Source: an uncultured Heliobacteriaceae bacterium
GTDB lineage: Bacteria; Acidobacteriota; Blastocatellia; RBC074
DNA length: 64,000 nucleotides
Reading direction: 5' to 3'
Assembly (NCBI GenBank): GCA_964468345.1
Contig: CAYXVZ010000025.1
Coordinates: 5,328 to 69,327 of the forward strand
The position numbers and the translations under genes are program-made. Below, one piece after another: positions 2,358 through 22,680 of this stretch. Under the pieces are notes generated by a model. The model did not search any database. It was not told the DNA's origin and was given only the letters and a program-made list of their open reading frames with translations. Within the stretch, counting starts at the first letter, position 1. Every line of letters starts with the position of its first letter.

Positions 2358-2374
2358 GCAGGTCTTTTTCCATA

Positions 2375-2596
2375 GCCCGCGGATGCGGGTGGCGGAATGT
2401 AGCCCAGGGTGAAGGCGAAGCCGGAACCCTGGGTAGTGTTAGATAGAAAACAAGCCCGCGGATGCGGGCGACAGTGATTGCCATATTTATCACTGCCGCC
2501 CGCATCCGCGGGCTTGTTTTTCTCGATAGATTGTCCCAGGGCTCGCGCAATAGCGCGTCGCCCTGGGCTACATTCCGCCGCCCGCATCCGCGGGCC
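2375..2596. repeat. 220-bp nested palindrome between convergent genes
   Basis: Outer arms GCCCGCGGATGCGGGtGGCGGAATGTAGCCCAGGG (2375-2410) and its reverse complement at 2561-2596. Each arm contains its own hairpin (CCCAGGG..CCCTGGG). The centre is a near-perfect 33-bp-stem hairpin. Confidence 0.85.
2444..2523. terminator. bidirectional intrinsic-terminator-like hairpin
   Basis: GAAAACAAGCCCGCGGATGCGGGCGACAGTGAT-(10 nt loop)-ATCACTGCCGCCCGCATCCGCGGGCTTGTTTTTC, a 33-bp stem with one mismatch. T-run on + and A-run on the other side. Confidence 0.8.
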
Positions 2597-2634
2597 GAGG
2601 ACACGCACCGATTTCGGAAATTTGATCCTGCTAT

Positions 2635-3693
2635 TTATTTCCCCGGACCGCGCGCGTCCTTCAATTGCTGAAACCTTGCGATGGCTTCTTTCGCCTTCGC
2701 GGAGTCGCCCTGTTTTTGATAGAGGCGGCCGAGAGCGTAATGCGGATCCGCATAAGTCGCGTCGAACTCCGCGGCGCGTTCGAGCGACGCGATGGCTTCC
2801 TTCCCTCGGTTTTGTTTTTCCAGCAATAAGCCCATTTGATAATGAATCTGCGGCAGGCGATTGTCATAACGCAGGGCTTCCTGCAGGGCGCTTTCGGCTT
2901 CGGCGAGTTTGTTCTGCGCCTGCAGGGTGATGCCGAGATTGAGCGGCGGCCATGGCGAAGGCGTCGTTTGTTTCCGATTGAGTTCGATCGCCACGGCGAA
3001 ATGCTTCACGGCTTCGTCGTATTGCCCGAGATAATCGAAGCACAATCCCAGATTGTCATATGCCCTTGTCATCTGCGGCGCGAGCTCGATGACCTTGCGC
3101 AGCTTCTCGACCGCCGGTTGATATTGCTGCGCGTCGTAATCCATCCGGGCGAGCCAATAAAGGTACAGCGCTTCTTTCGGAAACTCCGCGACCAGTTTTT
3201 CCAACTCCGGCCGCGCCCAGTCCGGACGCTTCAGGCGGATGAAGGCCATGCTCATCGTGAAGCGGCTGCGCGCTTCAAGCGGCGCGATGGCCTTCGATTT
3301 CTGATAGGCGACCGCGGCATTCAGGAATTCTCCATTGAGAAAAAACACGCCGCCCGCAAACGCCAGCAAGGACGCGGCCGCCGGCGATTTCGGCGCGCGC
3401 GCCGTCTCTTTGTCGATCTCCGCGACCAGCAGTTTTTCCGCCGCGGTGTACTCCTGCCGTTTCAATAACGCCGCCAGTTCCTCGCGCTGCGCCTGCGTCA
3501 GCGGCAGATTCGCTGGATTGAGCCCCGCGGGCATCGGCATTTCGGGTGTTTGCGCCCGGGCCGTTGAAGCGATAAAAAACAGCAAAACAAAGGTTCGAAG
3601 GATCAAAGGCTCAAAGAAGATTCGTCTGTTTTTCTTTGAACCCTTGATCCTTTGAACCTTTGTGTTGAACGTTTTACACATTTTCATATGCAT
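2635..3693 (-). CDS. secreted TPR-repeat protein
   Basis: Track ORF 2635..4020 is over-extended; it overlaps the next gene. A plausible start is MHMKMCK.. (3681-3693), followed by signal peptide LILRTFVLLFFIASTARAQTP. Repeated 34-aa TPR-like units (..YYQKSKAIAP.., ..AYDNLGLCFDYLGQYDEAVKHF.., ..HYALGRLYQKQGDSAKAKEAI..). Confidence 0.7.
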   Translation of the reverse strand: MHMKMCKTFNTKVQRIKGSKKNRRIFFEPLILRTFVLLFFIASTARAQTPEMPMPAGLNPANLPLTQAQREELAALLKRQEYTAAEKLLVAEIDKETARAPKSPAAASLLAFAGGVFFLNGEFLNAAVAYQKSKAIAPLEARSRFTMSMAFIRLKRPDWARPELEKLVAEFPKEALYLYWLARMDYDAQQYQPAVEKLRKVIELAPQMTRAYDNLGLCFDYLGQYDEAVKHFAVAIELNRKQTTPSPWPPLNLGITLQAQNKLAEAESALQEALRYDNRLPQIHYQMGLLLEKQNRGKEAIASLERAAEFDATYADPHYALGRLYQKQGDSAKAKEAIARFQQLKDARGPGK

Positions 3694-3719
3694 TCGAAGA
3701 AAAAGAAGCGTACAAGCAT

Positions 3720-4547
3720 TCACTGCGAAGCAGCTTTCGCCGCTTCGATCTTCTGTTTCAGATCCAGCGCTTTTCGGCTCTCGGGCGCGAGCTTCAATTC
3801 GAGATCGATCTCGCGGGCCGCGTCCGCATAGCGTTTTTGCTCGAAATAAATCACGGCCAGGCCCAGATGGATTTCCGCCAGCTTCGGATCGACTTCCGCC
3901 GCGCGATTGTATTCCGCGATGGCCAGGTCGAATTTGCCCTGCCCCAGATATTGCTGCGCCAGCGATTGATGCAGCCGCGCCGAGTCGGGATCGATCGCAA
4001 TCATGCGGCGATAGCTCCATTCCGACAGCCGGCCGAGCGCGCGCCCCAGTTGATAGGCATATTCCGGCTCGCGCGCATCGAGTTCCGCCAGCGCCAGATA
4101 TTGCTCGACGGCCGCGGGCAGGTTCTCGGCCGCTTCATAGGCGCGGGCCAGTTGCAGGCGGGCCTGCGGCTCCGCCGGCAGGAGCTTCACGGCCTGTTCC
4201 AGCGATCGCGTGGCCTCCGCGGTTTTGCCCAGCGCCAGCAGGCTCACGCCGAGCAGCAAATGCGACGGGCCGTTGCCCGGCTCCAGCCGAAGCGCTTCGC
4301 GAAACTGCGCGCCAGCCGCCGCGTGATCGCCCCGGCGTTGAAAAATGATGCCCAGATTGTGATGCGCGAAGGCCGATCGTCCGCGCTGCCCGAGCAATTG
4401 CCGAAAGATCGTTTCGGCTTCCGCCAGGCGATTTTCCTTGAGCGCGGCGAGCCCTTCGGCGGAAAGCGTTTCGGCCGGCGTCTGCGCCAGCGCCGCTGTC
4501 ATCGACAGCGCAAGGCACAGTCCGAAAGATCGGAGAAATGCGTTCAT
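3720..4547 (-). CDS. secreted TPR-repeat protein
   Basis: Signal peptide MNAFLRSFGLCLALSMTAALAQTP from the internal Met (cat at 4545-4547). TPR units (..HHNLGIIFQRRGDHAAAGAQFREALRLEP.., ..LQLARAYEAAENLPAAVEQY..). Start could also be 4604. Confidence 0.7.
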   Translation of the reverse strand: MNAFLRSFGLCLALSMTAALAQTPAETLSAEGLAALKENRLAEAETIFRQLLGQRGRSAFAHHNLGIIFQRRGDHAAAGAQFREALRLEPGNGPSHLLLGVSLLALGKTAEATRSLEQAVKLLPAEPQARLQLARAYEAAENLPAAVEQYLALAELDAREPEYAYQLGRALGRLSEWSYRRMIAIDPDSARLHQSLAQQYLGQGKFDLAIAEYNRAAEVDPKLAEIHLGLAVIYFEQKRYADAAREIDLELKLAPESRKALDLKQKIEAAKAASQ

Positions 4548-4639
4548 AATTACGATTCCATTGTGGGATTGTGCGTTGACAGTATACGCCGGATGAGGCT
4601 TCAATAGGCAAATTCAATTACGCAAATTCAGGCGGTCGA

Positions 4640-6277
4640 ATGAAAGGCAAAAGGCAAAAGGCAAATATCAAAAGGCAAAAGTGGGGAATTCGTGTCTGCC
4701 GACAGGAATCTCGATGTATCCTTTTGCCTTTTGCCTTTCTTCTCTTCCTGATTTCGTCGCCGATCATCGCCCAGACCCCGCGCGAACAGGCGATTCTCGC
4801 CGTGCAGGATCTGATGCAGCAAAATCGCGGAGCCGAGGCAAGGCAGGCGCTGGCAGCGGGCTTCAAAAAGTTTCCGGGCGATGCGGGGCTCGAAAATCTG
4901 TTGGGCATTCTGGAGGCGCAGGAAGGGAATCGCGCCGCGGCGGAAGCGGCCTTCAAACGCGCGCTCACGCGATCGCCGGGGCTGCTCGGCGCCTATTTGA
5001 ATCTCGGCCGCCTGTATCTCGAAAGCGCCGCCACCGATCCGCAGGCGGCAGAAAAGGCGCTCGACATCTATCAGCGCGCGCTGCGCCAACAGCCGGCGAA
5101 CCCTGAAGCCAATTATCAGGCCGCTGTTTTATTGCAGCATCGGGGGGAATATCGGCTCGCGCTCGCCCACCTGCAACGCTTGCCCACGGAATACAAACAG
5201 AGCGCGCAATCGCTGGCCGTTCTCTGCGGTGTGCACGCGGGCCTCGGCAATCGGCAGCAGGCACAGGCCACAGTGGAGGCGCTCACCGTCCATCCCGATT
5301 TTTCCGAAGCGGATCTCATTGGCATTCTGCCCACGCTCGAAAAGGCGCAGCGCGAAGACCTGGCCGTGTCCTTGCTGGAATCGCTCGCCTCGCGCGGCGC
5401 GATCGGCGCGGAATTGCAGCACCGGCTGGGCCTGTTTTATGAGCGGCAGGGACACCTGGATCGCGCGCGCGCAGCGGTTGAAAAAGCCGCGGGGCCGCGT
5501 CCTTCGACTGCGCTGCTGGTTGATCTGGCCCGCATCGCGCATCGACAGCGGGACAATCAAGGCGCGCTCGGCTATCTGGCGCACGCCCGCGATCTCGAAC
5601 CGAACAACGCCTCCGTGCATTATTTTTTCGGCATGGTTTGTGTGGATCTGTTTCTCGGAGCGGAGGCCCAGGTTTCGCTCGGCAAGGCCGTCGCGCTCGA
5701 TCCTGAAAACGCGCAATACAATTATGCAATGGGCGTCGTATCGTCGTTTCGACACGATCCGGCCGAGGCGATCCCGTATCTAAAAAAGTTCCTTGCGCTC
5801 AAACCGGGCGATCCGCAGGGCACGCTGATGCTGGGCATCGTCTATTTCAAAAGCAAGGAGTATGACGCCGCGCAGCGGGAATTGCTGCGCGCGAAAGCAG
5901 ACCGGCCAAGCGCGGCGACGGCGGCTTATTATCTCGGCAGTATTGCGCGATTGAACGGCCAGCTTGAAGAAGCGATCCGCCTCGAACAGGAAGCCCTTGC
6001 GATCAATCCCAATCACGTCGATGCGCTGGCCGAACTCGGGCAGGCGCTGTTGCAGCAGAAACAATACGAGCAGGCGGAAAAGCAATTGCAGAAAGCTCTC
6101 GCGATCAATCCCGACCACTATGCGGCGAATTTCAATCTGTTGACGCTCTATAGCCGCACGCGCGATCCGCGACAGGAGCCGCTGGCCAAACGATTCGAGG
6201 AAATCAAAAAGCTTCGCGAAGAGAAGGCGCAGGACTTCCTTCGCGGCGTGGAGGTGCGGCCCTATGCCGTACCGTAG
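4640..6277 (+). CDS. secreted TPR-repeat protein (about 13 TPR units)
   Basis: Hydrophobic signal segment LLPFAFLLFLISSPIIAQTP followed by many TPR units. The ATG at 4640 and the basic N-tail (KGKRQKANIKRQK) lie inside the GCAAAAG repeat element, so the true start is uncertain. Confidence 0.7.
   Translation: MKGKRQKANIKRQKWGIRVCRQESRCILLPFAFLLFLISSPIIAQTPREQAILAVQDLMQQNRGAEARQALAAGFKKFPGDAGLENLLGILEAQEGNRAAAEAAFKRALTRSPGLLGAYLNLGRLYLESAATDPQAAEKALDIYQRALRQQPANPEANYQAAVLLQHRGEYRLALAHLQRLPTEYKQSAQSLAVLCGVHAGLGNRQQAQATVEALTVHPDFSEADLIGILPTLEKAQREDLAVSLLESLASRGAIGAELQHRLGLFYERQGHLDRARAAVEKAAGPRPSTALLVDLARIAHRQRDNQGALGYLAHARDLEPNNASVHYFFGMVCVDLFLGAEAQVSLGKAVALDPENAQYNYAMGVVSSFRHDPAEAIPYLKKFLALKPGDPQGTLMLGIVYFKSKEYDAAQRELLRAKADRPSAATAAYYLGSIARLNGQLEEAIRLEQEALAINPNHVDALAELGQALLQQKQYEQAEKQLQKALAINPDHYAANFNLLTLYSRTRDPRQEPLAKRFEEIKKLREEKAQDFLRGVEVRPYAVP
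4643..4740. repeat. GCAAAAG-heptamer composite palindrome, copy 1
   Basis: Left arm AAAGGCAAAAGGCAAAAGGCAAATATCAAAAGGCAAAAG, 38-nt spacer, right arm CTTTTGCCTTTTGCCTTTC. Arm sequence is shared with 22590-22680 and 42850-42885. Confidence 0.8.
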
Positions 6278-6296
6278 GGAGCATGGAGTTGCTTGG

Positions 6297-6610
6297 TGGT
6301 GGAACAGGTTAGCAACCTTGTCATTCCCCACATTTTTCGTGTTTTCTTGCGGCCCGAATAGACCCAATTTCCTTAAAAAGCGGTGCTTTTCCAGGCTCCA
6401 GAGGAGCCGAATGTTTATAGTTCGCGCGATTGCTTACGCCCCAAGCTCCGTAGGGGCGAAATGTGCCACATTCCGCTCCTGCGGAGCTTGGGGGCATTTT
6501 CGGCCTGATTCTATAAACATTCCGCCCTCCGGGGCGAATCCGCCACTGAACAAGAGATCCGGAAAATGAAAAGATGTGGGTAATGACAAGGTTCATAACC
6601 TGTTCCACCC
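6297..6610. mobile_element. MITE-like element: 36-bp terminal inverted repeats flanking a structured ~240-bp core
   Basis: Left TIR GGTGGAACAGGTTAGCAACCTTGTCATTCCCCACAT (6297-6332). Right TIR 6575-6610 is its reverse complement with 3 mismatches. The core has nested palindromes (GGCTCCAGAGGAGCC; AGCTCCGTAGGGGCG..CGCTCCTGCGGAGCT; AATGTTTATAG..CTATAAACATT). No ORF. Confidence 0.7.
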
Positions 6611-6685
6611 GGGCGCTTGCCATCTTCCCTTGCTCAATGTTTCGAACCACCACTGATGCGGCCGATTGCAAGACGACAAATCAAC

Positions 6686-7630
6686 ATGCTTGACCTATCT
6701 GGCTTCAAATCCCTGTCTCTTTCTTTGCTTCTGGTATTCTTGTCCATTTCACTCTCCGCGCAAACGCCGGAGATTTCGCGCGCGCTTGATCGGGCGGACT
6801 ATCAACGAGCGGAGAAGCTCGCCTCGGCTTCGTTGCGCACGCGGCCGCGCGATGTCTCGCTGCGACTGCTGCTGGCGCGCGCGATTCTGGGGCAGGGCCG
6901 CTTTCGCGAAGCCGTCGCGGCATTGCGCGGCGTGTTGACGTTCGATCCGAAAAACATCGATGCGCTTTATTACCTGGGCCTCTCGGCCAGTGCTTTGTCG
7001 CAAATGGAATTCGAGCGGCTCTATGCCCTCGCGCCGGAATCGTATCGCGTGCATCAACTGTTAGCCGAGGCCGCGCTGGCGCAGGAAAACCCGGCCGAAG
7101 CGGAAACCGAATACCTGGCCGCGCTCAAGCTCGCTCCCGATTCGCCGGAATTGTTGATCGCCCTGGCAGAGTTGAAACGGACGCAGTCGAAATACGACGA
7201 AGCGATTCCGCTCTATTCCCGCGCGGCGGAAGTGAGCGGAATGAACTACGACATCGCGTATGGCCTCGGGGCGAGTTATTCCTATCAACAGGATTACAAG
7301 CGGGCCGCGGATCATTTTCGGCAGGCGGTGAGGTTCGCGCCGGATGCAACGGCTGCTCGCTATGGGCTGGGAAATGCGCTCTTCCAACTCGGCGAGACCG
7401 AAGCCGCCGTGACGGAGTTGCAGGCTGCGGTTCGGTTGCTGGATACACAGAAACAGGCATGGTTTCTGCTCGGGCGCGCCTATCAAAAACTTGGCCGGCA
7501 GGCTGAAGCCAAAGAAGCCTTCGCCAAAATCGAAGCCATCACCGCGCGGGAATTACAGCGGGAGCAGGGAGCGAGTCGGGAAGAAGAGAAAATCAAAAGG
7601 CAAAGGGCAAATGGCAAAAGGCAAAAGTAA
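6686..7630 (+). CDS. secreted TPR-repeat protein
   Basis: Start taken at MLDLSGFKSLSLSLLLVFLSISLSAQTP (signal peptide). Track ORF from 6617 would begin inside the MITE-like element. TPR units follow. The C-terminal tail ..KIKRQRANGKRQK* is encoded by the GCAAAAG repeat. Confidence 0.7.
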   Translation: MLDLSGFKSLSLSLLLVFLSISLSAQTPEISRALDRADYQRAEKLASASLRTRPRDVSLRLLLARAILGQGRFREAVAALRGVLTFDPKNIDALYYLGLSASALSQMEFERLYALAPESYRVHQLLAEAALAQENPAEAETEYLAALKLAPDSPELLIALAELKRTQSKYDEAIPLYSRAAEVSGMNYDIAYGLGASYSYQQDYKRAADHFRQAVRFAPDATAARYGLGNALFQLGETEAAVTELQAAVRLLDTQKQAWFLLGRAYQKLGRQAEAKEAFAKIEAITARELQREQGASREEEKIKRQRANGKRQK

Positions 7631-7662
7631 AGAGAGGGTCTTTACTTTTGCCTTTTGATTTT
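7590..7662. repeat. GCAAAAG-family palindrome, copy 2; probable bidirectional terminator
   Basis: GGCAAAAGTAAAGA-gaggg-TCTTTACTTTTGCC is a perfect 14-bp stem, nested in AAAATCAAAAGG...CCTTTTGATTTT. Lies between convergent genes. Confidence 0.8.
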
Positions 7663-7663
7663 C

Positions 7664-8590
<927 letters not shown>

Positions 8591-8684
8591 TGAGATGCCT
8601 CTTTCGGAAAAAGTATGAGTCTATCCTTAGACTTGCTTGTTAGTGCATACCTTAGCAGAACCGGGGAGGATCTCAAAATCTGCC

Positions 8685-9090
8685 CGGGAAAGTCTGGGGA
8701 AGTCTGGACAAGTCTGGAGAAGTCTCGGGAAGTCTGGAGAAGTCTCGGGAAGTCTGGAGAAGTCTCGGGAAGTCTGGGGAAGTCTGGAGAAGTCTGGAGA
8801 AGTGATTGATTTATTGGTCTCCCATATTTTCCTGGCTCCGGAGGAGCCATATATTTCTAGACATAAGTTCGCTTTCATTCCGCGCTCCGTAGGAGCGCCA
8901 TCTGCCCAGATGGCGCTCCTACGGAGCGCGGAATATGGGGGCGGGCCATGCTATAAATATTCGGCTCCGCTGGAGCCGTTACCATTCGAGGCTTCAGTGG
9001 TCGGTGCTCAAGACTTCTCAAGACTTTTCAAGACTTTTCAAGACTTTTCAAGACTTTTCAAGACTTCCCGAGACTTGCCCCGACTTCCCC
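8685..9090. repeat. composite palindrome: (GRGAAGTCTS)x12 array, structured core (8822-8975, related to the 6297-6610 core), then inverted (AGACTTYTCA)x8 array
   Basis: Direct decamer array 8685-8803. Core has GGCTCCGGAGGAGCC, CCGCGCTCCGTAGGAGCGCC..GGCGCTCCTACGGAGCGCGG, CTATAAATATT, GGCTCCGCTGGAGCC. Inverted decamer array at 9008-9090. Confidence 0.85.
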
Positions 9091-9604
9091 TCTTTATGCA
9101 TCTGCTGATACTTCTCGCGCAGGCGGAGCGTGAATTCCATTTCGGAGCTGACCGATCGCAGGGCGAGCCGCGTTTCGGCGATCAGCATCACGCAGCCATA
9201 AAATAAAATGACGGTGCCGATAATGCCCAATGTATTGGGCAGCCAGAGAATTTTTTGGGCGACCGGCGGCAGAATGGAGATGAATCCCACGGCCACCATC
9301 GCGGCGACAAAGGTGCTCAAGGCGACGTAAAAACTGGTCAGGGCGTTTTGAATCAGGCGGGTGCGGCGGGCATGGATAGAGATCTGGCGCTCGACCTCGA
9401 TGCGGCGCTCTTCCGGAAAATCGAGGGTTTCCTCCGACTTGGCCATCTCTTCGATCACGCGGCGAAGCTCGCGCACGCGATCGACAATCCGCGCCAGGCG
9501 GGCCGAGGTGGAAATAACGAGCGTCCCGCATGCCGAAATCAGCACGGCGGGCGTGATCATCGCGCTCAGGACATTGAGTCCGGTGCTTGTGGCGTCTTGC
9601 ATAT
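9048..9604 (-). CDS. DUF2721-like small membrane protein
   Basis: Start at MQDATSTGLNVL (cat at 9602-9604); track ORF 9048..9785 is over-extended through the GGGGCGAG repeat. The C-terminal tail KEGKSGQVSGSLEKS is encoded by the GAGAAGTCT array. Has a coiled segment plus 2 TM helices (FYVALSTFVAAMVAVGFISIL / LGIIGTVILFYGCVMLIA). Confidence 0.55.
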
Positions 9605-9605
9605 G

Positions 9606-9748
9606 GGAAAGGGGCGAGGGGCGAGGGGCGAGGGGCGAGATGAAAATGCCGAGTGAGGCGTTAAATTCGTTGCTGTTTATCGCACGGGTGTTAACTCTGC
9701 ACTCCACATTTCCTTCTCGCCCCTCGCCCCTCGCCCCTTTCCTCCTGC
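9606..9748. repeat. GGGGCGAG-octamer composite palindrome, copy 1
   Basis: GGGAAAGGGGCGAGGGGCGAGGGGCGAGGGGCGAG ... ~75 bp ... CTCGCCCCTCGCCCCTCGCCCCTTTCC, between the PCD and DUF2721 genes. Confidence 0.85.
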
Positions 9749-9750
9749 AG

Positions 9751-10029
9751 CTACAATATTGAACTGATTTTTTCCGCCAGCCCAAAGTCCCGGTTCGTCA
9801 GGCCGCCCTGATCGTGCGTCATCAATCGCAGGCGGACTTTGTTCCAGCCGTGAACCAGAATATCGGGGTGATGATCCGCGCTTTCGGCCAGATCGGCAAC
9901 CTGATTGACGAAATGCATGGCCTGTTTGAAATTCTCGAACGCGAAATCACGGACGATTTCATCGCCTTCCCGCTTCCATCCCGCCGCGCGTGTCAGACGA
10001 TCCTGGATCTGTTCTTCACTCAGTTTCAT
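9751..10029 (-). CDS. pterin-4a-carbinolamine dehydratase (PCD/DCoH family)
   Basis: MKLSEEQIQDRL..W.....I.R.F.F.NF..A..F...V...AE...HHPDI.V.GWNKV.L.L.THD.GGLT..D matches the PCD signature [EDKH]xHHPDx(6)Wx(9)HDx(2)GL. Start Met at 10027-10029. Confidence 0.75.
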   Translation of the reverse strand: MKLSEEQIQDRLTRAAGWKREGDEIVRDFAFENFKQAMHFVNQVADLAESADHHPDILVHGWNKVRLRLMTHDQGGLTNRDFGLAEKISSIL

Positions 10030-10224
10030 AGTTGTTTTAGATGTCAGTAGGTCTAGCCAACTTGCAAATGTTCTCATAGATATAGCGGCTTGCACAACGT
10101 AGCAACGCTGTATAGACTGGGCCATCATCGGAAAAATGACGGTGCTTAAACCGGCATATTGGGATAGGGGAGACAGAATTTTTAGAGAAGCATCTACCTC
10201 GAGAGAAGGCGCGGCAGAGGACGA

Positions 10225-12369
10225 TTGCGCTCGGGGAGCGAATTTATACTTATGATAAATGAACGTATGCTTGATCGTCGTTTGGGGCTCGATCCGGCGA
10301 CCCTGATTGGTGTCTATCGCACCATGTATACCTCACGGCGACTGGACGACAAGGAGCTGTTGCTCAAACGACAAAACCGCGTTTTCTTCCAGATCAGCGG
10401 CGCCGGCCACGAAGCGGTTCTCGTTGCGGCGGGCCTGTTATTGCGCCCCGGTTACGATTGGTTTTGGGCCTATTATCGGGATCGCGCCCTGGCATTGCAG
10501 TTGGGAATCACGCCGTATGAGCACCTGCTCGGCGCAGTGGCCGCGCAGGAAGATCCGTTCTCGGGGTCGCGGCAGATGCCGTCGCATTGGAACAATCCGA
10601 AGTTGCATGTGTTTCCGCGTTCTTCCTGCACGGGGACGCAGTTTTTGCAGGCCGTGGGCGCGGCCGAAGCGGGCTATCGGTATTCGATGATCAAAGAGAT
10701 CGAAGATCGCGCTTCGCACTTCAAGCAGAATGAAATCGTGTATGTCTCCGCCGGCGACGGCACGACGAGCGAGGGCGAATTCTGGGAATCGCTCAATACG
10801 GCGTGCAATCTGCGCTTGCCGGTGCTTTACCTGATCGAAGACAACGGATACGCAATCTCGACGCCGGTCGAGGTGCAGACTGCGGGCGGCAGCATTTCGC
10901 GCCTCGTCGCGGGCTTTCCTTCGCTTTATATCGAGGAATGCGACGGCACGGATTTTCTGGAAAGCTATGAAACGCTCGGCCGGGCAATCGATTATTGCCG
11001 CGAACGGCGCGGGCCCGCACTTGTGCATGCACATGTGATCCGCCCCTATTCGCATTCGCAGTCGGACGACGAAACGCAGTACCGCCCTGAAGAAGAGCGG
11101 GCGGCCGATGCGGCGCGCGATCCGATTATGCGCTTCGGCAATCTGTTGCTTCGCGAAGAGATTGCAACGCCCGCGGAATTGCAGCGCGTGCGGGATGAGG
11201 TCGATGCGGAAATCAACGAGGCGGCCGATCGGGCGCTGCAGTTGCCGCAGCCGCCGAAATCGTCGGCGACCATGTTTGTGTATTCGCCGGACGTCGATCC
11301 GACATCGCCGACTTTCGATACGGAACGCCAGGTCGAAGTCAGCGGCAACGAAGGCACGATGGTCGATCTGATCAATCGCTGCATTCATGAAGAGATGGAG
11401 CGGAATCCGCGCATCATCGTTCTCGGGCAGGATGTGGCCGATGCCAGCCGCTCGGAGTATCTCAATCGCGTGAAGGGCAAAGGCGGCGTCTTTAAGGTGA
11501 CGGCGAACCTGCAGCGCGATTTCGGCAGCGACCGCGTCTATAACACGCCGCTGGCCGAAGCTAACATTATGGGCCGCTCGCTCGGCATGGCGGCGCGCGG
11601 GTTGAAGCCCGTGGCCGAAGTTCAGTTCTTCGATTACATCTGGCCGGCCTTTATGCAGATGCGCGATGAGGTGGCGTTGCTGCGATGGCGTTCGAACAAC
11701 ACCTGGAAGTGCCCGATGGTCGTGCGCGTTCCCGTGGGCGGCTATCTCAAGGGCGGCGCGATCTATCACAGCCAGTCCGGCGTCTCGACCTTCACGCAGA
11801 TTCCCGGCTGGCGCGTGGTGATGCCCGCGACGGCGCTCGATGCCAACGGCCTGCTGCGCACGGCGATTCGTTCGGACGATCCGGTACTCTTTCTCGAACA
11901 CAAGCATCTGTACCGGCAGGCGTATAATAAGAGCCAGTATCCGGGCCGCGATTTCATGATTCCCTTCGGCAAGGCCAAGGTCGCGCGCGAAGGCACCGAT
12001 CTGACGATCATCACCTTCGGCGCGCTCGTCCAGCGTTCGCTGGTCGCGGCCAAGCAGGCGGCCGAATCGGATATCAGCGTCGAGGTCATCGACCTGCGCA
12101 GCCTGAGCCCGTACGACTGGGCCGCAATCGAGCGCAGCGTTAAAAAGACCAATCGCGTGATTGTCGCGTATGAAGATCCGCTCTCGTGGGGCTATGGCGC
12201 CGAGATCGTTGCGCGCATCGCGGATGAACTCTTCGATCACCTCGATGCGCCCGTTCGCCGCGTCGCCGCGCTCGATTGCTTCGTCGCCTATGCGCCGGAT
12301 GTGGAAGACGCCATCCTGCCGCAGGTGGAAGACGTCGTCCGCGCGATTCGCGAGACCGCTACGTACTGA
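10225..12369 (+). CDS. TPP-dependent 2-oxoacid dehydrogenase E1 component, fused alpha+beta subunits
   Basis: N-half is E1-alpha-like ([14 protein letters not shown].., [36 protein letters not shown]). C-half is transketolase/E1-beta-like ([50 protein letters not shown]). Start could be Met at 10252. Confidence 0.8.
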
Positions 12370-12371
12370 GA

Positions 12372-12468
12372 AGACGGAGAGAAGGAGGGACGGAGAGAAA
12401 GAGGGAAAACGCTAAATCGAAGCTTTTATCCCTCTTTTGCTCCGTCTTTCTTTCTCTCCATTACATTG
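12372..12468. repeat. GA-rich/TC-rich tandem-17-mer palindrome after the E1 gene (terminator-like)
   Basis: GACGGAGAGAAGGAGGGA-CGGAGAGAAAGAGGGAAAA ... TTTTATCCCTCTTTTGCTCCGTCTTTCTTTCTCTCC. Imperfect complementarity between two GA-rich units and two TC-rich units. Confidence 0.6.
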
Positions 12469-12502
12469 CCTTCCAAAACAAAAAGTCTGCATTGCGAGGT
12501 CA

Positions 12503-12652
12503 GCCCCGTGCAACGGGGCTTGCCCGAAGGGCTATTAGCCGGGCGCTTCAGCGCCCGGCTACCGGCGAATCAATCCCAAAGCCCCGTTCACGGGGCTTTC
12601 CCGAAGGGCTACTAGCCGGGCGCTTCAGCGTCCGGCAGCTGGCGAATCGATC
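12503..12652 (+). repeat. tandem direct repeat, 2 x ~73 bp, each unit with three hairpins, ending 9 nt before the MOSC start codon
   Basis: Unit 1 at 12503-12575 and unit 2 at 12580-12652, about 85% identical. Hairpins GCCCCG-tgcaa-CGGGGC, GCCC-gaa-GGGC, AGCCGGGCGC-ttca-GCGCCCGGCT. Differences between units fall mostly in loops. Confidence 0.8.
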
Positions 12653-12660
12653 AGCACGAG

Positions 12661-13143
12661 ATGGCACAACGCGACGGCGGAAAACTCACGGGCATTTTCA
12701 TCGGCCTGGAAAAGGGCGCGGGGAAACAGCCATTGCCCGAAGCTGAGCTGGTCGCCGAGCATGGCCTGCGCGGAGATCGACACGCCGGCAAGAATCCTCA
12801 ACGGCAGGTGAGCCTGTTTTCCGCCGAACGCCTGCGCGAACTGCAATCGGAAGGGTTCGAAGTCTCAGCCGAAGAACTCTCCGCCAATCTGTTCACCGAA
12901 CATATCGACCTCGATGCCCTGAAACCCCGAACCCAGCTACGCATAGGCGAAGCCGTGATTGAAATCGTGGAACGCAGGACGCCCTGCCGTTCGATCACGC
13001 GCATCGATGCGCGCCTGCCGAAGCGGCTCTATGGACGTTGCGGGCAGTTGGGCCGCATACTGATCAGCGGCCGCGTGCGCGCTGGCGATGAGATCGCCGT
13101 ACTGCCCGACGACCGTCAGGGAACGCTGCAATTCGAAAGCTGA
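12661..13143 (+). CDS. MOSC-domain protein
   Basis: About 160 aa with [19 protein letters not shown], then a conserved Cys ([11 protein letters not shown]), then [15 protein letters not shown], matching the MOSC beta-barrel domain. Confidence 0.7.
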
Positions 13144-13161
13144 TCCCGCAATCCGCCTGAC

Positions 13162-14187
13162 ATGCGCAAATTCCTCTTTCAACGATTGCTTGCGATCGTG
13201 CCGCTGCTCTTTGCCGTGGCGCTGGGCGCGTTTCTGCTCGTGAAACTGGCGCCGGGCGATTTTCTTTCCGACTGGAGCCAGAATCCGCAGATTTCGCCGG
13301 AGATCATTGCCCGGGAGCGGATGCGCCGCGGCCTCGATCAACCGTGGCATGTTCAGTTTCTCAGATGGCTGGGGATGATTGCGCGCGGCGATTTCGGGTA
13401 TTCCTTCGCCTATCACCGGCCCGCGTCCGCGTTATTGGTCGAGCGCCTGTGGAACACGATCGTACTGGCCATCGGCGGCCTTGGGACGGCGCTCGCAATC
13501 GCGGTTCCCTCGGCCGTGTATGCCGCGCGTCATCGCGCCGGCTGGTTCGATCGCGCCGCGGCTGTCATCACGGCCTTTTATCTCTCGATGCCGTCCTTTC
13601 TGCTGGCTCTGCTTGCGCTCGTGTTTGCGGCGCGCACCGGTTGGTTTCCGATTGGAAAAAGCAGTTCCCTCGATGCGGGCGGGTTTTCATTTTTCGAAAA
13701 GCTGGCGGATGGCGTTCATCACTTGATCCTGCCCGCCCTGGTGCTGGCCGCGGGACAGGCGCCGGCTTATTTCCGGCAGCTTCGCGCAAGCTTGCTCGAA
13801 ATCATTACGAGCGATTTCATTCTTGCGGCCCGGGCCCGCGGTTTTGGAGAAAAACGCATCTGGATCTCGCATGCGCTTCGCAATGCGATCAATCCCACCA
13901 TCACGATGTTCGGGCAATCGATCGGCGCGCTGCTCTCGGGCGCGTTTATCGTCGAATCCATCATGTCCTGGCCGGGACTGGGCAGCCTCGCCGTGCGTTC
14001 GCTGCTGGAACGCGACCTCTATGTGCTGGTCACTTGCCTTCTGTTCGCGGCGCTTTTGCTGATGCTGGGAAACCTGCTGGCGGATGTTCTGTTGCTGTGG
14101 AGTGATCCGAAAAGCAGGGATGAGGGATTAGGGGCGAGGGGCGAGAAAAACAGGGGGGCGAGGGGCGAGGGGCGAGAAAAGCAGTGA
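13162..14187 (+). CDS. ABC transporter permease (DppB/OppB-like, peptide/nickel type)
   Basis: Six TM segments. EAA-like loop LILAARARGFGEKRIWISHALRNAINPTI. The C-terminal tail GLGARGEKNRGARGEGREKQ is encoded by the GGGGCGAG repeat. Confidence 0.8.
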   Translation: MRKFLFQRLLAIVPLLFAVALGAFLLVKLAPGDFLSDWSQNPQISPEIIARERMRRGLDQPWHVQFLRWLGMIARGDFGYSFAYHRPASALLVERLWNTIVLAIGGLGTALAIAVPSAVYAARHRAGWFDRAAAVITAFYLSMPSFLLALLALVFAARTGWFPIGKSSSLDAGGFSFFEKLADGVHHLILPALVLAAGQAPAYFRQLRASLLEIITSDFILAARARGFGEKRIWISHALRNAINPTITMFGQSIGALLSGAFIVESIMSWPGLGSLAVRSLLERDLYVLVTCLLFAALLLMLGNLLADVLLLWSDPKSRDEGLGARGEKNRGARGEGREKQ

Positions 14188-14319
14188 TGAGGAAAAAGGG
14201 GAGAGTTGAGTCTATGCCACTAAAATCCATTTTCACGAAGGCGCGCTCCCTCGCCCCTCGCCCCTCAACCCTCGCCCCTGCCCTTCTCGCCCCTCGCCCT
14301 TCGCCCCTCGCCCCTTTCC
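14117..14319. repeat. GGGGCGAG-octamer composite palindrome, copy 2, spanning the junction of two permease genes
   Basis: (GGGGCGAG)n with A-rich interruptions at 14117-14185. Inverted (CTCGCCCC)n at 14248-14319. Contains the stop of 13162..14187 and the putative start of the next gene. Confidence 0.85.
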
Positions 14320-15374
14320 GGACTCTGAATCACAACCTCTTCTTCGGCGGCGCACTGCTCGTCGTGTTTGTGCTGTGCGCGGTGCTGGCGGATTTTCTTT
14401 CGCCGTATTCGCCCGCGGCGGAGCATCGAGAGGCGCCGTCCGCGCCGCCGAGCCGGATTCGCTTTCGGGATGCGGCGGGGCAATGGAGCCCGCGGCCCTT
14501 TGTTTATCGCATTCGCAGCGTCGATCTTCTTTCGCGGCAATATGCCGAAGACGTCGATCGCCCGTATCCACTGCGTTTTTTCGTGACGGGAGAGCCTTAT
14601 CGATTGTTGGGGATGGTTTCCTGCCGGCGGCATTTGTTCGGCGTGGACGAGCCCGCGCGCATCTTCCTGTTTGGCGCCGATGCGCTCGGGCGGGATCTCT
14701 TTTCGCGGCTCTGCGCGGGCGCGCGGCTTTCCTTGTGGACGGCGGCCGCGGCTCTGTTGATTTCCTTGCCGCTGGCCCTGTTCATCGGAGGCATCGCGGG
14801 ATATGCCGGCGGGGTGGCCGATTTTTTGAGCCAGCGATTCATCGAGCTTCTGCTCGCGCTGCCCACCCTGTATCTATTGATCGCCCTGCGCAGCACGCTG
14901 CCCCAACAACTGCCGCCGGGGCGCGTCTTTTTCGCTATGGTCGGATTGATGGCGGTCTTCGGCTGGGCGCATCTTGCGCGCATCATCCGCGGCACGGTGC
15001 TTTCGCTGCGCCAGCAGCCGTTTGTGATGGCCGCGCGGGCGCTGGGCGCTTCGGACCGGCGGATTCTCGTTCGTCATATCTTTCCGCATCTGGCCGGCAC
15101 GCTCTTTCCGCAGGCCGCAATTATCGCGCCGGGTTTCATTCTCGCCGAAATCACTCTATCCTATCTCGGCCTCGGCGTTTCGGATCCCTTGCCCAGTCTT
15201 GGCAAAATGCTCGCCATGGAGGGAGGCCTGACGCAACTCACCCGCTACTGGTGGACGCTTGCCCCTTGCGTTGTCATCTTCTTTCTCAGTCTGACTTTTT
15301 ATCTTCTTTCGGAGGGATTGCGAGAATACTTTCATCCGCGCACGCCCCGCGTGGACGTCTCTAATCAGCTCTGA
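14184..15374 (+). CDS. ABC transporter permease (DppC/OppC-like)
   Basis: TM-rich. Motif MAARALGASDRRILVRHIFPHLAGTLF. The N-terminal ~45 aa are encoded by the CTCGCCCC repeat arm, so the true start is uncertain (14184 or Met at 14214). Confidence 0.75.
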   Translation: MMRKKGRVESMPLKSIFTKARSLAPRPSTLAPALLAPRPSPLAPFRTLNHNLFFGGALLVVFVLCAVLADFLSPYSPAAEHREAPSAPPSRIRFRDAAGQWSPRPFVYRIRSVDLLSRQYAEDVDRPYPLRFFVTGEPYRLLGMVSCRRHLFGVDEPARIFLFGADALGRDLFSRLCAGARLSLWTAAAALLISLPLALFIGGIAGYAGGVADFLSQRFIELLLALPTLYLLIALRSTLPQQLPPGRVFFAMVGLMAVFGWAHLARIIRGTVLSLRQQPFVMAARALGASDRRILVRHIFPHLAGTLFPQAAIIAPGFILAEITLSYLGLGVSDPLPSLGKMLAMEGGLTQLTRYWWTLAPCVVIFFLSLTFYLLSEGLREYFHPRTPRVDVSNQL

Positions 15375-15411
15375 TACCATCCGCTTACTTCGGCATGAAA
15401 ACTTCAATAAA

Positions 15412-17154
15412 ATGAAAAGGACTATGGCGAAACAAGACTACAAATCGCTGCAAGCATTTCTCTGTCTGCTTACGCTTCTGGGGCTGGTTCTCGGCCATGC
15501 GGGATGTGGAAAGAACGAAACCAAGCCCGCCGCGCCCAATCGCATCGTGGTTTCAAAGACGGTTGGGCCGCGGACGTTGAACCGATTGTTCGCCGCGGAC
15601 GAAGTGACGGGCAGCATACTGGATTGCATGAATGCCCGGCTGATTCGCATCAATCGGCAGACGCAACAGGCCGAGGGCGAACTCGCCACGCAATGGCAGC
15701 TTTCGCCGGACGGAAAAACGCTTGAATGCGATTTGCGGACCGATGCGAAGTTCTCCGATGGCCAGCCGTTCACGGCCGAAGACGTGCTGTTCACCTTTCA
15801 GGTACTGCAGGATCCGAAAGTGGCTTCGCCGCTGGCCGACACGTTTCAATCCGGCGGCGGGCAGATGAAGGTCGAGAAGCTCGGCGATCACAAGGTGCGT
15901 TTTGCTTTCTCGTCGCCGCTGGCCGCTGTGGAGCGGCTTTTCGACGGCATCGCCATCCTGCCCAAACACTCGCTCGAAGCGGCCTATCGCGAAGGAAAAT
16001 TCGCCGAAGCCTGGAACCTATCGACGCCGCCCGCGCAGATCGTCGGACTTGGCCCTTTCAAATTGAAAGAAGTCGTCGCCGATCAGCGAATCGTGATGGC
16101 GCGCAATGAGCATTACTGGAAAAAAGACGCGAGCGGAACACAATTGCCTTATCTGGATGAACTGATCATCAGCATCGACGCGGACCGCAGCGCGCAGGTG
16201 CTCAAGTTCCAGAACGGCGAAACCGATCTGCTCTATCCGGTCAATGTCGATGATGTCCCCGCGCTGCAGGCCCTGGAACAACAGGGAAAGATCAAGCTGA
16301 TGGATATGGGGCCGAGCCAGATCCGCGAGATCTTCTGGTTCAATCTCAACGACGGAAAATCCAAGGAAGGCAAACCCTTTCTCGATCCCGTCAAGCGCGC
16401 CTGGTTTTCCGATGTTCGCTTTCGACAGGCCATCTCGCACGCCATCGATCGCGATGCGATCGTCTCGGTCGTCTTCGCGGGCAAGGCGGCGCCGCAATAC
16501 GGTTTTCTCTCGGCGGGCGACAAGCTCTGGCACAACGATCAGGTGAAAAAATTTTCCTATGATGTCGAACGGGCGAAAAGTCTCTTGAAACAAGCCGGTT
16601 TCAAATACACCAGCGGCAACGACCTGATCGACTCCGAAGGACATCCCGTGTCCATCACGATGGTCACCAATGCGAGCAATGCCCTGCGGGGGAAAATGAG
16701 CACCATGATCCAATCGGATCTGGCGAAGATCGGCATCCAGGTCAATATCGCTTCGCTCGAATCGCGCGCGCTGCTTTCGACGATCAACGATACCTTCGCC
16801 TATGAAGCCGCGTTGCTGGCCGTGGTCAGCGGCGACGCCGATCCGAATTCGCACGCGAATATCCTGACCAGCGCTGGAGCCGGTCACTGGTGGTATCCGG
16901 GCCAGAAGCGGCCGGCGACGACGTGGGAGGCGCAGATCGATGCCTTGATGGCCAGGCAGCGCGTCGCGCTCGACCCGGCGCAGCGAAAGGAAGCGTTCAA
17001 TCAGGTGCAGGCCCTGATGGCCGAACAGCAGGCGTTCATCTTTCTCGCTTCGCGTCACCTGCTCGTCGCCGCAAAGCCGGACATCGGCAATCTGAAGCCC
17101 GCGCTCTTGCCTGATTTTGCGTTGTGGAATGCCGATGAATTGAAGCGTCAATAG
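15412..17154 (+). CDS. ABC transporter substrate-binding lipoprotein (SBP family 5, peptide/oligosaccharide type)
   Basis: Lipoprotein signal ..LLGLVLGHAGCGKNE. Length (~580 aa) and internal motifs match family-5 SBPs. It follows the two permeases. Confidence 0.8.
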   Translation: MKRTMAKQDYKSLQAFLCLLTLLGLVLGHAGCGKNETKPAAPNRIVVSKTVGPRTLNRLFAADEVTGSILDCMNARLIRINRQTQQAEGELATQWQLSPDGKTLECDLRTDAKFSDGQPFTAEDVLFTFQVLQDPKVASPLADTFQSGGGQMKVEKLGDHKVRFAFSSPLAAVERLFDGIAILPKHSLEAAYREGKFAEAWNLSTPPAQIVGLGPFKLKEVVADQRIVMARNEHYWKKDASGTQLPYLDELIISIDADRSAQVLKFQNGETDLLYPVNVDDVPALQALEQQGKIKLMDMGPSQIREIFWFNLNDGKSKEGKPFLDPVKRAWFSDVRFRQAISHAIDRDAIVSVVFAGKAAPQYGFLSAGDKLWHNDQVKKFSYDVERAKSLLKQAGFKYTSGNDLIDSEGHPVSITMVTNASNALRGKMSTMIQSDLAKIGIQVNIASLESRALLSTINDTFAYEAALLAVVSGDADPNSHANILTSAGAGHWWYPGQKRPATTWEAQIDALMARQRVALDPAQRKEAFNQVQALMAEQQAFIFLASRHLLVAAKPDIGNLKPALLPDFALWNADELKRQ

Positions 17155-17317
17155 AACTCATCCCGGAGGGATGACAGCAACCAAATCAGAACAAAATACT
17201 TTGGGATAGTTTTACCACGGGGACCATGGGGAAATGACAAATAGATTCAACCTCCCTGCGCCCCCAATGTATCTACAGATGTTTGATCGTTGAATTTGTC
17301 CCGAAGGGACAACGGAG

Positions 17318-17502
17318 ATTAGCCGGTGGTGGAGCGAAGCGTAACCACCGGAACAGCGTGAAAAGATTTCGCGTCCCGGCAGGGACGCCGGACCAGTACT
17401 CATTTTCTGAATACCATCGCTTTGGTCCGGCGCCCCTGCCAGGGCGCAATACAATACTTAATCTATCCGGTGGTTACGCTTCGCTCCACCACCGGCTAAT
17501 CT
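17318..17502. mobile_element. MITE-like element: perfect 36-bp inverted repeats flanking a 113-bp core
   Basis: GATTAGCCGGTGGTGGAGCGAAGCGTAACCACCGGA (17318-17353) and its exact reverse complement at 17467-17502. Each arm is internally palindromic (CCGGTGG..CCACCGG). Small hairpins flank it (GTCCCGAAGGGAC at 17299, GCGCCTTTGGCGC at 17510). No ORF. Confidence 0.7.
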
Positions 17503-17559
17503 CCGTTGCGCCTTTGGCGCAAAGAGTTTTGTGACAGGGTGTCACGATTGCTGGCACGC

Positions 17560-17917
17560 AACGGGACGATCAGATGATCATTACGCCGCGCCTTCCCCAC
17601 GACGACGAAACGCACGCAACGATTTTTCCTTCCGATAACTTCTCTCCGCAAAATGTCTTAGCGCCATCGCGCACATGCTGATTTAAAACAAATTTTACGC
17701 CCACGTATTTTTTCAGCCGAGGGTCATCACTCATAGGGCAATTCAGCGACGATCGATTTTCGATTTCCCCGAACCCCCGTACCAAATCGATCAGCGCAAG
17801 AGTAGAGAATCATAACGAAGCAAACCATTCGAAATTTTTCACGCGCGAATCGCCGCGCGGGGAACAGGTCGAGGTGTGTTCGATTGTGCAGGCGCTGGGA
17901 AACATGGACTGACAAGA
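17560..17917 (+). promoter_or_regulatory. low-GC non-coding leader upstream of the glycosyltransferase operon
   Basis: About 360 bp with no credible ORF and an obvious drop in GC (runs such as TTTAAAACAAATTTTACGCCCACGTATTTTTTCAG). Lies immediately 5' of 17918. Confidence 0.4.
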
Positions 17918-19171: not shown

Positions 19172-19178
19172 GGATTCC

Positions 19179-22549: not shown

Positions 22550-22589
22550 GGGCGCTATTTGTGCCTCACCATAACGGAGGAAAGAAAAA

Positions 22590-22680
22590 TTAAAAGGCAA
22601 AAGGCAAATATCAAAAGGCAAAAAGATTGCCGGAAAGTCGATGTGATAAGGCGAGGTTCGCACTTTTGCCTCTTGATTTC
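22590..22680. repeat. GCAAAAG-family palindrome, copy 3
   Basis: TAAAAGGCAAAAGGCAAATATCAAAAGGCAAAAAG ... CACTTTTGCCTCTTGATTTC, after the stop of the heparinase-like gene. Confidence 0.8.

Follow-up and report, generated by a model that had tools for sequence, protein, structure and literature searches.

Decamer-array hairpins and related tandem-unit palindromes form a dense, lineage-wide class of repeats in Blastocatellia

A 64,000-nucleotide stretch of DNA from an uncultured bacterium of the Acidobacteriota (Blastocatellia, RBC074; GenBank assembly GCA_964468345.1, contig CAYXVZ010000025.1, positions 5,328 to 69,327), hereafter the window, carries at positions 8685-9090, between ctaB and a DUF2721 gene, a long palindrome with arms made of tandem decamers. 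The locus raises the question of what kind of element this is, how arms of such length come about, and whether the hairpin that they could form has a function. A preliminary description, made from the letters of the window alone, had reported a decamer array, a spacer and a reverse-complement array at this place, which our analysis confirmed. At this locus, two palindromic intergenic repeats are combined, an outer decamer-array hairpin and a 160-bp module in its loop, and the locus is part of a real, dense, lineage-wide class of tandem-unit hairpin repeats. As a whole, the account that we consider somewhat probable is that these are dispersed families resembling the sequences termed REP (repetitive extragenic palindromic) and STRR (short tandemly repeated repetitive), with arms grown by slippage, complementarity maintained by concerted evolution, and sites at 3' ends or between cistrons where a hairpin may act, the length of the focal element being mostly surplus.

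The left arm of the focal locus (8685-8803, plus strand) consists of 11 full NNNN-AAGTCT units and a truncated twelfth, with the consensus RGRR-AAGTCT, and the cores of the 11 full units follow each other at an exact spacing of 10 nt. Tandem Repeats Finder (TRF) resolved this arm into 11.4 copies of period 10 and also into 3.0 copies of period 40 (score 201), and the higher-order 20/40-nt period includes the 20-nt repeat GGAGAAGTCTCGGGAAGTCT, present three times. The right arm (9007-9090, plus strand) is built of eight AGACTT-NNNN units, the reverse complement of the left unit, with seven AGACTT cores and one CGACTT core (TRF: 5.9 copies of period 10, 97% matches), and it contains a run of four identical TTCA units. 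As the 20/40-nt period is found in the left arm and the TTCA run in the right one, the latest expansions took place separately in each arm. The two arms are 77-82% complementary and are separated by a gap of 203 nt. As a whole, the outer part represents an unusually large member of a decamer family of the form (RGRR-AAGTCT)n - loop - (AGACTT-YYCY)m.

The nested palindromic module of 160 bp lies within this gap, at 8826-8985 (palindromic elements are given here without strand), and has a homologue at 6385-6545, with a mean column identity of 73% in both orientations; it belongs to a second family of repeats, similar to MITEs (miniature inverted-repeat transposable elements). In its layout, a GGCTCCnnnGGAGCC hairpin is followed by GAATRTTTATAG and by a long central palindrome built around GCTCCGTAGGRGCG, after which the first two parts recur in mirrored form. 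The module centre (8877-8934) is a perfect palindrome, with 100% complementary 28-nt arms and a 2-nt loop. In addition, two small, G+C-rich hairpins are arranged back to back in the module and score as terminator-like in a consensus scan, both with a T-rich tail: TGGCTCCGGAGGAGCCA (8833-8849, plus strand) faces rightward transcription, and CGGCTCCAGCGGAGCCG (8962-8978, minus strand) faces leftward transcription, the flanking genes being read in this direction. The RNA fold predicted for the minus strand of 8680-9095 has an energy of -212.4 kcal/mol (z = -14.7), and that of a second decamer locus (63090-63305) one of -113.7 kcal/mol (z = -9.3), which bears out the long-hairpin folding proposed in the preliminary description.

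Are such arrays beyond what chance, or a faulty assembly, would produce? The pattern AAGTCT-N4-AAGTCT occurs 26 times in the window versus 0 times in 100 dinucleotide shuffles. A strict TRF-based search for an array paired with its reverse-complement array returned 8 pairs in the window, whereas neither any of 20 dinucleotide shuffles nor 50 kb of E. coli K-12 sequence contained one; shuffled window sequences yielded 18-35 weak arrays and no pairs. Moreover, long inverted repeats were detected at 20 loci in the window versus 0-1 in shuffles. That the loci are assembly artefacts, namely collapsed or chimeric repeats, would be consistent with the finding that short-read assemblies of the same organism break within these repeats. 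However, the same architecture is present in dozens of independent assemblies from different projects, with the decamer architecture in about 30 loci of independent Acidobacteriota assemblies, and the arrays stand in a sensible gene context and run into unique sequence on both sides. The artefact that the preliminary description had itself considered was therefore not upheld, and we give it practically no weight. It was also observed that all Logan short-read contigs of this organism (L163-L169, L071-L073) stop about 25-150 nt from a gene end, inside a repeat, so that the repeats systematically fragment short-read assemblies.

We then focused our attention on the distribution of the decamer family, which was searched in one genome per species with a pattern of three GAAGTCT units; the following counts apply among the matches listed. 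Most matches were in metagenome-assembled genomes (MAGs) of Acidobacteriota/Blastocatellia, with at least about 25 loci in one MAG, and there the arrays were almost always paired, an AAGTCT array being followed by a loop and an AGACTT array, whereas matches in other phyla were mostly solitary arrays. Viral contigs gave nine matches, all of them solitary direct arrays in unrelated context, and were set aside as holding no related arrays. At least 35 paired elements, at non-orthologous Acidobacteriota sites, give the unit consensus R-G-R-R-A-A-G-T-C-T. A typical element has 3-6 units per arm and a loop of 9-45 nt, and the two copies in the window are the largest among the at least 35 listed. The second of these (63094-63301, 10 + 8 units, 34-nt loop) reaches from an EF-hand gene's stop codon to a point 22 nt short of the ApbE start codon. 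Loops are unrelated between decamer copies, the elements fill the space from a stop codon to the next start codon, and no orthologous pairs were found among decamer loci of different MAGs.

To evaluate how general the design is, we turned to 80 metagenome loci with CtaB relatives (57-69% identity), which together with the window provide 0.8 Mb chosen without regard to repeats. They contain 260 tandem arrays with a period of 6-12 nt, of which 138 have a period of 7 and 94 are in inverted pairs. All 42 neighbouring pairs of same-unit arrays are reverse-complement, with no direct and no mirror pairs, and the medians are 3.9 and 3.8 units per arm and a 28-nt loop. Thus, the shared architecture that the preliminary description had regarded as a genome-wide theme extends beyond the window into related contigs. 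In literature searches, we found no descriptions of these repeats in Acidobacteria.

The next question is how the arms acquire their units. In the decamer family, the spacer variants of one arm do not mirror those of the other (observed 0.7125, null 0.708, p = 0.63; the mirror-order test of unit variants is underpowered for heptamers), each arm is homogenised separately (e.g., in locus L054, CGGA four times versus GGGG eight times), and the number of units in one arm shows no correlation with that in the other (Spearman 0.03, p = 0.88). A second strain, represented by Logan contig L070, with a ctaB gene 98.5% identical to that of the window, has an identical 100-nt ctaB leader, but the adjoining array edge displays a different unit order or one additional unit; this strain comparison comprises one array edge and one apex insertion, as the Logan contigs stop inside repeats. 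Comparing unit numbers between strains, as the preliminary description had proposed, hence reveals a focal array edge that differs next to an unchanged leader. Altogether, each arm grows or shrinks alone, by single or double units, and the arrays change faster than their unique flanks. Replication slippage, one of several mechanisms named in that description, is the best-supported route of arm growth, in view of the one-arm repeats, the unmirrored variants, the strain difference and the uncorrelated unit counts.

Slippage within each arm would thus be the engine of the process, while template switching on the hairpin (quasipalindrome correction), or else selection for pairing, may keep the two arms complementary. 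A hairpin with approximately 3-4 tandem units per arm was found in the spacer that separates ctaB from the gene after it, in about 30 contigs. The units differ by contig (GTCAGT, GTAAAT, GTCCCAT, GCAAAG, CAGTTTT, GTGATAA and others), and the arms stay complementary; unlike units occur in contigs with 98% identical CtaB, and like units in contigs 25-30% apart. Three GCAAAG units and three GTAAAT units align in the same register counted from the stop codon, so that the difference falls on the same two positions in every unit, and contig L126 resembles L137 in its immediate flanks. These comparisons point to concerted change within arrays together with a probable exchange of alleles by recombination. 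At orthologous junctions, the unit has been replaced or has changed in concert in both arms, and the design (about four units, a loop of about 28 nt, and the complement) persists. In L070, the hairpin 3' of ctaB (1084-1160) is made of ACGAAA-type units, in place of the GCAAAAG hairpin of the window, and a 3.7-kb peptidase gene (1518-5207) is located between ctaB and a gene for a tetratricopeptide repeat (TPR) protein. The DUF2721-ctaB spacer in other relatives carries GAGGATC or CATATTT hairpins, and in some relatives no element at all.

Within a family, a different kind of relatedness is observed. The unit order TCAAAAG-GCAAAAG-GCAAATA-TCAAAAG-GCAAAAG, together with a two-unit right arm, is common to four GCAAAAG loci, and a 25-nt arm, its variable positions included, is common to four CACGAAGA loci. 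Such a shared higher-order unit order indicates copies of one template rather than independent inventions, and spread between sites would have taken place by a trans-acting route.

In this context, it is necessary to consider whether the hairpins themselves are built by recombination or transposition. According to this explanation, palindromic units would be inserted specifically at hairpin apices, and self-insertion would generate both the (unit)n-loop-(rc unit)n design and the nested palindromes. A precedent is provided by a 284-nt palindromic element (insert 6312-6595, region 6298-6609) with terminal inverted repeats of about 27 nt (CAACCTTGTCATTCCCCACATTTTT and following), which sits exactly at the apex of a hairpin with a 14-bp stem, GGTGGAACAGGTTA-G-TAACCTGTTCCACC. 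This hairpin is intact in the second strain (L070, 6233-6261), and the site is thus polymorphic, filled in the window and empty in L070. Moreover, the core of the 284-nt element is the 160-bp module that is also present in the focal loop, so that nesting arose at least partly by insertion into hairpin loops. Nested palindromes at 8804-9006, at 50728-50985 and in L030 agree with apex insertion, and so does the existence of a group of RAYT-like tyrosine transposases (RAYT, REP-associated tyrosine transposase), called TIRYTs, which Di Nocera et al. described as specific to Acidobacteria (PMC3733652). However, apex insertion predicts equal unit numbers and a mirrored order of variants, neither of which is shown by the decamer family, and the most recent expansions are specific to one arm. 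In addition, no RAYT homologue was detected by phmmer with E. coli RayT in the approximately 1.5 Mb of collected loci, which is a small sample and not a genome-wide one. We therefore regard apex insertion as the origin of the tandem arms as very unlikely.

Similarly, no target duplications, in the form of direct repeats, were seen at the outer edges of 35 decamer and four GCAAAAG elements, whose edges are degenerate and whose boundaries are uncertain, and no gene family recurs beside the decamer arrays (maximum 3 of 41 loci). For the transposase or recombinase acting on hairpins that the preliminary description had suggested, these searches provided no target duplication, recurrent neighbour or RAYT, and the observation in its favour is a single, unrelated element of 284 nt at a hairpin apex. 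A more far-reaching version would see here an acidobacterial mobile DNA that targets structures and lacks a transposase in cis: a hairpin-specific enzyme provided in trans (e.g., a TIRYT) would insert at apices, iteration and slippage would then produce tandem arms and nesting, and AAGTCT would be the recognition site. We hold this to be quite unlikely.

The decamer family also has features of the iteron type, namely a conserved core and a fixed 10-nt phase. Hence, the decamer arrays could be platforms of sites for a sequence-specific protein that binds duplex DNA, with the hairpin potential being incidental; candidate binders would be a nucleoid or insulator protein, or a transposase with end sites as in Tn7 or Mu, and (GGAGAAGTCT)6 would serve as the probe. 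In agreement with such a role, the AAGTCT core is nearly invariant at exactly 10 nt, which is one helical turn, while the spacer is held only to RGRR and is non-complementary between arms of unequal and uncorrelated length. The same core also recurs across many genomes, where the sites are non-orthologous and the loops unrelated, and the ctaB leader contains an isolated inverted pair, AAGTCT-N6-AGACTC. Nevertheless, a plain array of sites has no need of the near-universal inverted pairing, and eight unrelated unit families within 64 kb would call for many dedicated proteins. Isolated AAGTCT/AGACTT sites outside arrays are at chance frequency (12 observed versus 13.4 expected) and not enriched, for which reason the idea of a regulon-type motif was dropped; that no recurring neighbour gene was found and no target duplications were seen speaks against a binding platform as well. 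On balance, this explanation seems unlikely.

Other known repeat systems were discarded. A CRISPR array was ruled out, as the units are contiguous 7-10-mers in inverted pairs and not repeats of 24-48 nt with unique spacers of similar length. Integron attC sites and telomerase-like repeat addition were dropped in view of the contiguous units, the housekeeping neighbours and the lack of anything supporting templated addition.

We next turn to what the hairpins may do. Palindromic elements are found in all five convergent spacers of the window, in 11-12 of the 15 co-directional spacers longer than 100 nt, and in none of the five divergent ones. Arrays begin 0-6 nt past stop codons, in the ctaB spacers among others, and the hairpins at the ctaB junction are intercistronic, ending 10-20 nt before the ribosome-binding site and start codon. 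This placement, after stop codons and in convergent spacers and not in divergent ones, fits hairpins that would work at 3' ends or between cistrons. Judging from the sequence, transcripts crossing an element would fold into a very long hairpin right after the stop codon, which may act as a 3'-end structure, a terminator or an intercistronic stabiliser, and most of the 12-unit length of the focal arm would be a non-adaptive surplus left by slippage.

The comparison with intrinsic terminators is instructive. Similarly to these, the elements directly follow stop codons and are present in every convergent spacer of the window, and the window families have a purine- and A-rich 5' arm and a pyrimidine- and U-rich 3' arm. 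The purine-rich arm comes first in every window family and in about 35 of 50 elements in relatives, which makes it a tendency and no law. Moreover, the stretch 7615-7657 of a GCAAAAG element matches the terminator consensus, as do the two inner hairpins of the focal module. In contrast to intrinsic terminators, the stems are 30-110 nt long with periodic mismatches, loops reach 200 nt, the decamer arms have no clean U-tract, and many elements lie just upstream of the next ribosome-binding site. An intrinsic terminator is defined by a short G+C-rich stem, a loop of 3-8 nt and a U-tract right behind the stem, and the consensus scan does not report the decamer arms.

Several results weigh against the account that we favour. 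With crude gene calls, the 71 elements fall into 55 tandem, 7 convergent and 9 divergent cases, against a background of 372, 76 and 100, respectively. The statement of the preliminary description that the elements often sit between convergent genes is consequently not supported, since most are located between co-directional genes in background proportions, although each of the five convergent window spacers does carry one. Sense hairpins were more stable than antisense ones in only 11 of 32 spacers (p = 0.25), and G-U-compatible mismatches numbered 60 in the sense and 49 in the antisense orientation (p = 0.34), so that no strand signature of selection at the RNA level could be observed. Many elements are found within apparent operons, where they precede the next ribosome-binding site by 10-20 nt, and are thus not simple full terminators. 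Some relatives have no element in their orthologous DUF2721-ctaB spacers, where it is hence dispensable. Furthermore, a near-invariant 6-nt core combined with non-complementary 4-nt spacers implies that selection for pairing alone is insufficient, and no target-site duplication, linked gene or RAYT that would point to a dispersal route was found in the material analysed.

Some of these results would be expected if the elements had no function, being selfish hairpins or mutational by-products of slippage-prone units. The position after stop codons would then be explained by tolerance, as elements would persist only where genes and promoters stay unbroken. Presence and absence at orthologous spacers in relatives, the quick turnover of unit families, the lack of a G-U strand bias, and orientation classes close to background all agree with this explanation, as do the surplus unpaired units on the longer arm and the open reading frames (ORFs) passively extended into arrays. 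Conversely, about 30 diverged contigs have kept a hairpin at the junction of ctaB with the gene that follows, although the units there have turned over completely, the distribution over convergent and divergent window spacers is all or none, and heptamer arrays cluster near a modal number of about four units, as in Xanthomonas (PMC4692102). An entire lack of function is possible, but we consider it doubtful, and the account of slippage-grown hairpins with a role at 3' ends or between cistrons remains the one that we favour.

Both the novelty and the class of the elements have to be judged against systems described before. Rehm et al. (2015) reported 186 arrays of the heptamer GGGAATC in Xanthomonas, with four units as the mode, 70-75 cases of two close repeat sites in convergent orientation and able to form stem-loops, and a strong bias of the arrays to lie at or over stop codons (PMC4692102). 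The likeness is considerable: in both systems, one short unit is arrayed twice in close proximity, once per strand, so that a stem-loop or cruciform can form, and the arrays are intergenic and spread over the chromosome, have about four units as the mode, lie at or overlap stop codons, and are not conserved at the same genes between related species. The reverse-complement pairs in our 0.8-Mb set are likewise convergent and close, and their medians and positions agree overall, whereas the focal locus, with 11 + 8 units, is much longer. However, Xanthomonas has essentially one G-rich, quadruplex-capable heptamer family, and here at least eight families with units of 7-16 nt occur per 64 kb; RGRRAAGTCT has no G-tracts, and only the GGGGCGA family (9606, 14114) is of that kind. 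Furthermore, the unit of the focal family is 10 nt long and combines a 6-nt core with a variable spacer, an arm can hold up to 11 such units, the family is common to a bacterial class, and its loops contain further palindromic elements in nested position.

STRR, known from filamentous cyanobacteria, are tandem intergenic units of 7 bp that can form hairpins, for example between hupS and hupL within an operon, and roles in transcript stability or translational coupling have been proposed for them (PMC2670836). This intercistronic hairpin matches those between ctaB and the next gene in our contigs. STRR were defined in heterocystous cyanobacteria and have mostly been described as single direct arrays, while the repeats reported here are hosted by an acidobacterium and are as a rule paired in inverted orientation, and the decamer family is almost restricted, among the matches listed, to Acidobacteriota/Blastocatellia; the focal unit has 10 nt, and the sister families GCAAAAG and GGGGCGA are heptamers. 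As the inverted heptamer arrays of Xanthomonas (PMC4692102) and the STRR hairpins (PMC2670836) had already been described, the novelty attributed to the design in the preliminary description was overstated.

REP sequences, bacterial interspersed mosaic elements (BIMEs) and REP doublets forming hairpins (REPINs), which are mobilised by RAYTs, also resemble the present elements, being high-copy intergenic palindromes after genes, in genome-specific families and sometimes clustered or nested, and they are thought to act as RNA hairpins (PMC3733652). In our case, however, the arms are made of tandem units with a variable copy number, loops are unrelated between copies, and reading all family sequences revealed no GTAG or CGTC tag at the arm ends. 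MITEs share the terminal inverted repeats, small size, many copies and intergenic location, and the 284-nt element is polymorphic in the same filled or empty manner. In the tandem-unit families, no target-site duplication is visible at the array edges, the boundaries of which are uncertain; the 'terminal inverted repeats' vary in unit number, unlike those of MITEs, and the internal sequences are unrelated between decamer copies and in two of the four GCAAAAG copies. The TAACTGA direct heptamer repeats reported by MacGregor (2015) in Beggiatoaceae, cyanobacteria and Bacteroidetes (PMC4679880) similarly consist of short units crowded into the space from a stop codon to the following start codon, with a sporadic phylogenetic distribution; they differ in comprising 169 direct sets versus one indirect repeat, in being oriented to the downstream start codon, and in forming no hairpins. 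According to the survey of Mrazek, as cited in that article, heptamers are the commonest long-unit repeats, and polymerase slippage was proposed for them (PMC4679880). The focal arms, with 11.4 and 5.9 copies, agree with the long simple sequence repeats of Mrazek (2007), as defined in the same citing article, i.e., head-to-tail units of 5-11 nt beyond chance (PMC4679880). Overall, by their sequence, the decamer family and its sister families with units of 7-16 nt appear to belong to the long-unit simple-sequence-repeat hairpins, as STRR and the Xanthomonas GGGAATC arrays do.

Regarding the remaining elements of the window, every locus listed in the preliminary description, which counted at least 14 loci in at least seven families, does exist, and our recount gives about 15 full loci in eight families within 64 kb. 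The eighth family, which was absent from that list, is the CAAAGGWT octamer palindrome at 3583-3667, between two TPR genes. Some unit lengths had to be corrected, as GGGGCGA has 7 nt and not 8, and CACGAAGA has 8 nt with three units per arm.

The GCAAAAG heptamer is present in four copies. The first (4642-4739) lies inside the 5' end of a TPR ORF, where the element (4640-4760) is in frame at the start, its purine-rich arm encoding KGKRQKANIKRQK and its pyrimidine-rich arm LLPFAFLLFL, which together resemble a signal peptide, with a charged and a hydrophobic part, that ends at AQ/TP. The second (7582-7664) separates the TPR and ctaB genes, which are convergent, and gives the best terminator-like match of positions 1-20000; the third is at 22579-22683, and the fourth (42810-42887), in opposite orientation, is between the convergent DUF885 and NmrA genes. 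The GGGGCGA heptamer was found at 9606-9742 (4 + 3 units, between PhhB and DUF2721) and at 14114-14315 (between two Opp permease genes). Its runs of three to four units (9610-9639 and 14155-14176) are canonical G-quadruplex (G4) motifs on one strand of each arm, analogous to the G4-forming heptamers of Xanthomonas and Nostoc.

The CACGAAGA octamer occurs at 48742-48804 (3 + 3 units, between EamA and AsnC), in a third full copy at 55933-56013, and in a composite at 50728-50985, where its arms surround an ACGGAA 9-mer palindrome (50793-50866) in a convergent spacer downstream of a Uma2 gene. This gene (50095-50724), directly upstream of the composite, encodes a putative endonuclease of the Uma2 family (PF05685), a family greatly expanded in cyanobacteria, which carry STRR too. 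The locus given as 40677 in the preliminary description has its arrays but not a complete palindrome: it is a half element (40682-40761) with right arms only, ACGGAA-type (40682-40708) and CACGAAGA (40737-40761), and no left arms. Further elements are a CACGAAT decamer palindrome (22764-22832) and a 16-mer, GACGGAGAGAARGAGG in two copies, with an imperfect complementary arm (12373-12459). The latter adjoins 1.9 copies of a 77-nt unit with 87% identity (12502-12652), with the two G+C-rich hairpins GCCCCGTnnACGGGGC and GCCGGGCGCTTCAGCGCCCGGC in each copy.

Nested palindromes without tandem units are located at 17310-17508 and 2374-2595; one has 199 bp with perfect 43-nt arms and the other 222 bp with 35-nt arms, the inner GCCCGCGGATGCGGGC hairpins of the 222-bp element having T-runs on both strands. 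A palindrome at 47628-47679 has 23-nt arms (AAAAATGTGGGACAGAAAAATAA) and shares the motif AAAAATGTGGG with the ends of the 284-nt element. A non-tandem hairpin family with palindromic arms (GTGGCACAGACTTCAGTCTGTG and following) was observed upstream of ctaB in L095 and L100 and downstream of it in L125, L144, L145 and L147, and it contains an AGACT/AGTCT core, as the decamer family does. The segments 19242-20428 and 38266-39461, 19 kb apart, show a DNA identity of 72-78% and are probably paralogous genes.

The genes flanking the focal locus are all encoded on the minus strand: ctaB (UbiA family, 7664-8590), the DUF2721 gene and a pterin-4a-carbinolamine dehydratase gene (PhhB). The ctaB leader, a promoter-like region (8591-8684, minus strand), adjoins the left arm directly and, as described above, is the part that is identical in the second strain. 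In relatives (L074-L111, about 110 nt upstream), the leader has a strongly conserved promoter-like box, TTTGGAAAAGCC...TATCTTATCGCTTACC...CATTCTTCATCATTCGGAAGGTAATTCC-ATG, from which the window version, with its isolated inverted pair, diverges. On the other side, the stop codon of the DUF2721 gene (9048-9050) falls within the right arm, so that its last 14 codons are encoded by the array, and the C-terminus KEGKSGQVSGSLEKS derives from repeat units (9048-9090). Likewise, the TPR protein encoded at 6617-7630 ends in KIKRQRANGKRQK, a tail that comes from repeat units (7590-7630), and arrays also create long spurious ORFs, e.g., 8637-9206. The gene content of the window is otherwise that of an ordinary chromosome, including TPR proteins, a 2-oxoacid dehydrogenase E1 component, Opp permeases and an AsnC regulator, and scans of the window returned no Rfam match and no tRNA.

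Hairpin-forming repeats of short tandem units, such as STRR and the Xanthomonas heptamers, have been known for decades. In practical terms, those described here break up acidobacterial short-read assemblies, give rise to spurious ORFs and lengthen real genes at their ends. For the biology of this lineage, they amount to a rich natural experiment, with many families per genome, one decamer family common to a whole class, and junctions at which the architecture lasts but the units change, which makes accessible the questions of whether the hairpin is under selection and of how two arms and several units stay in step.

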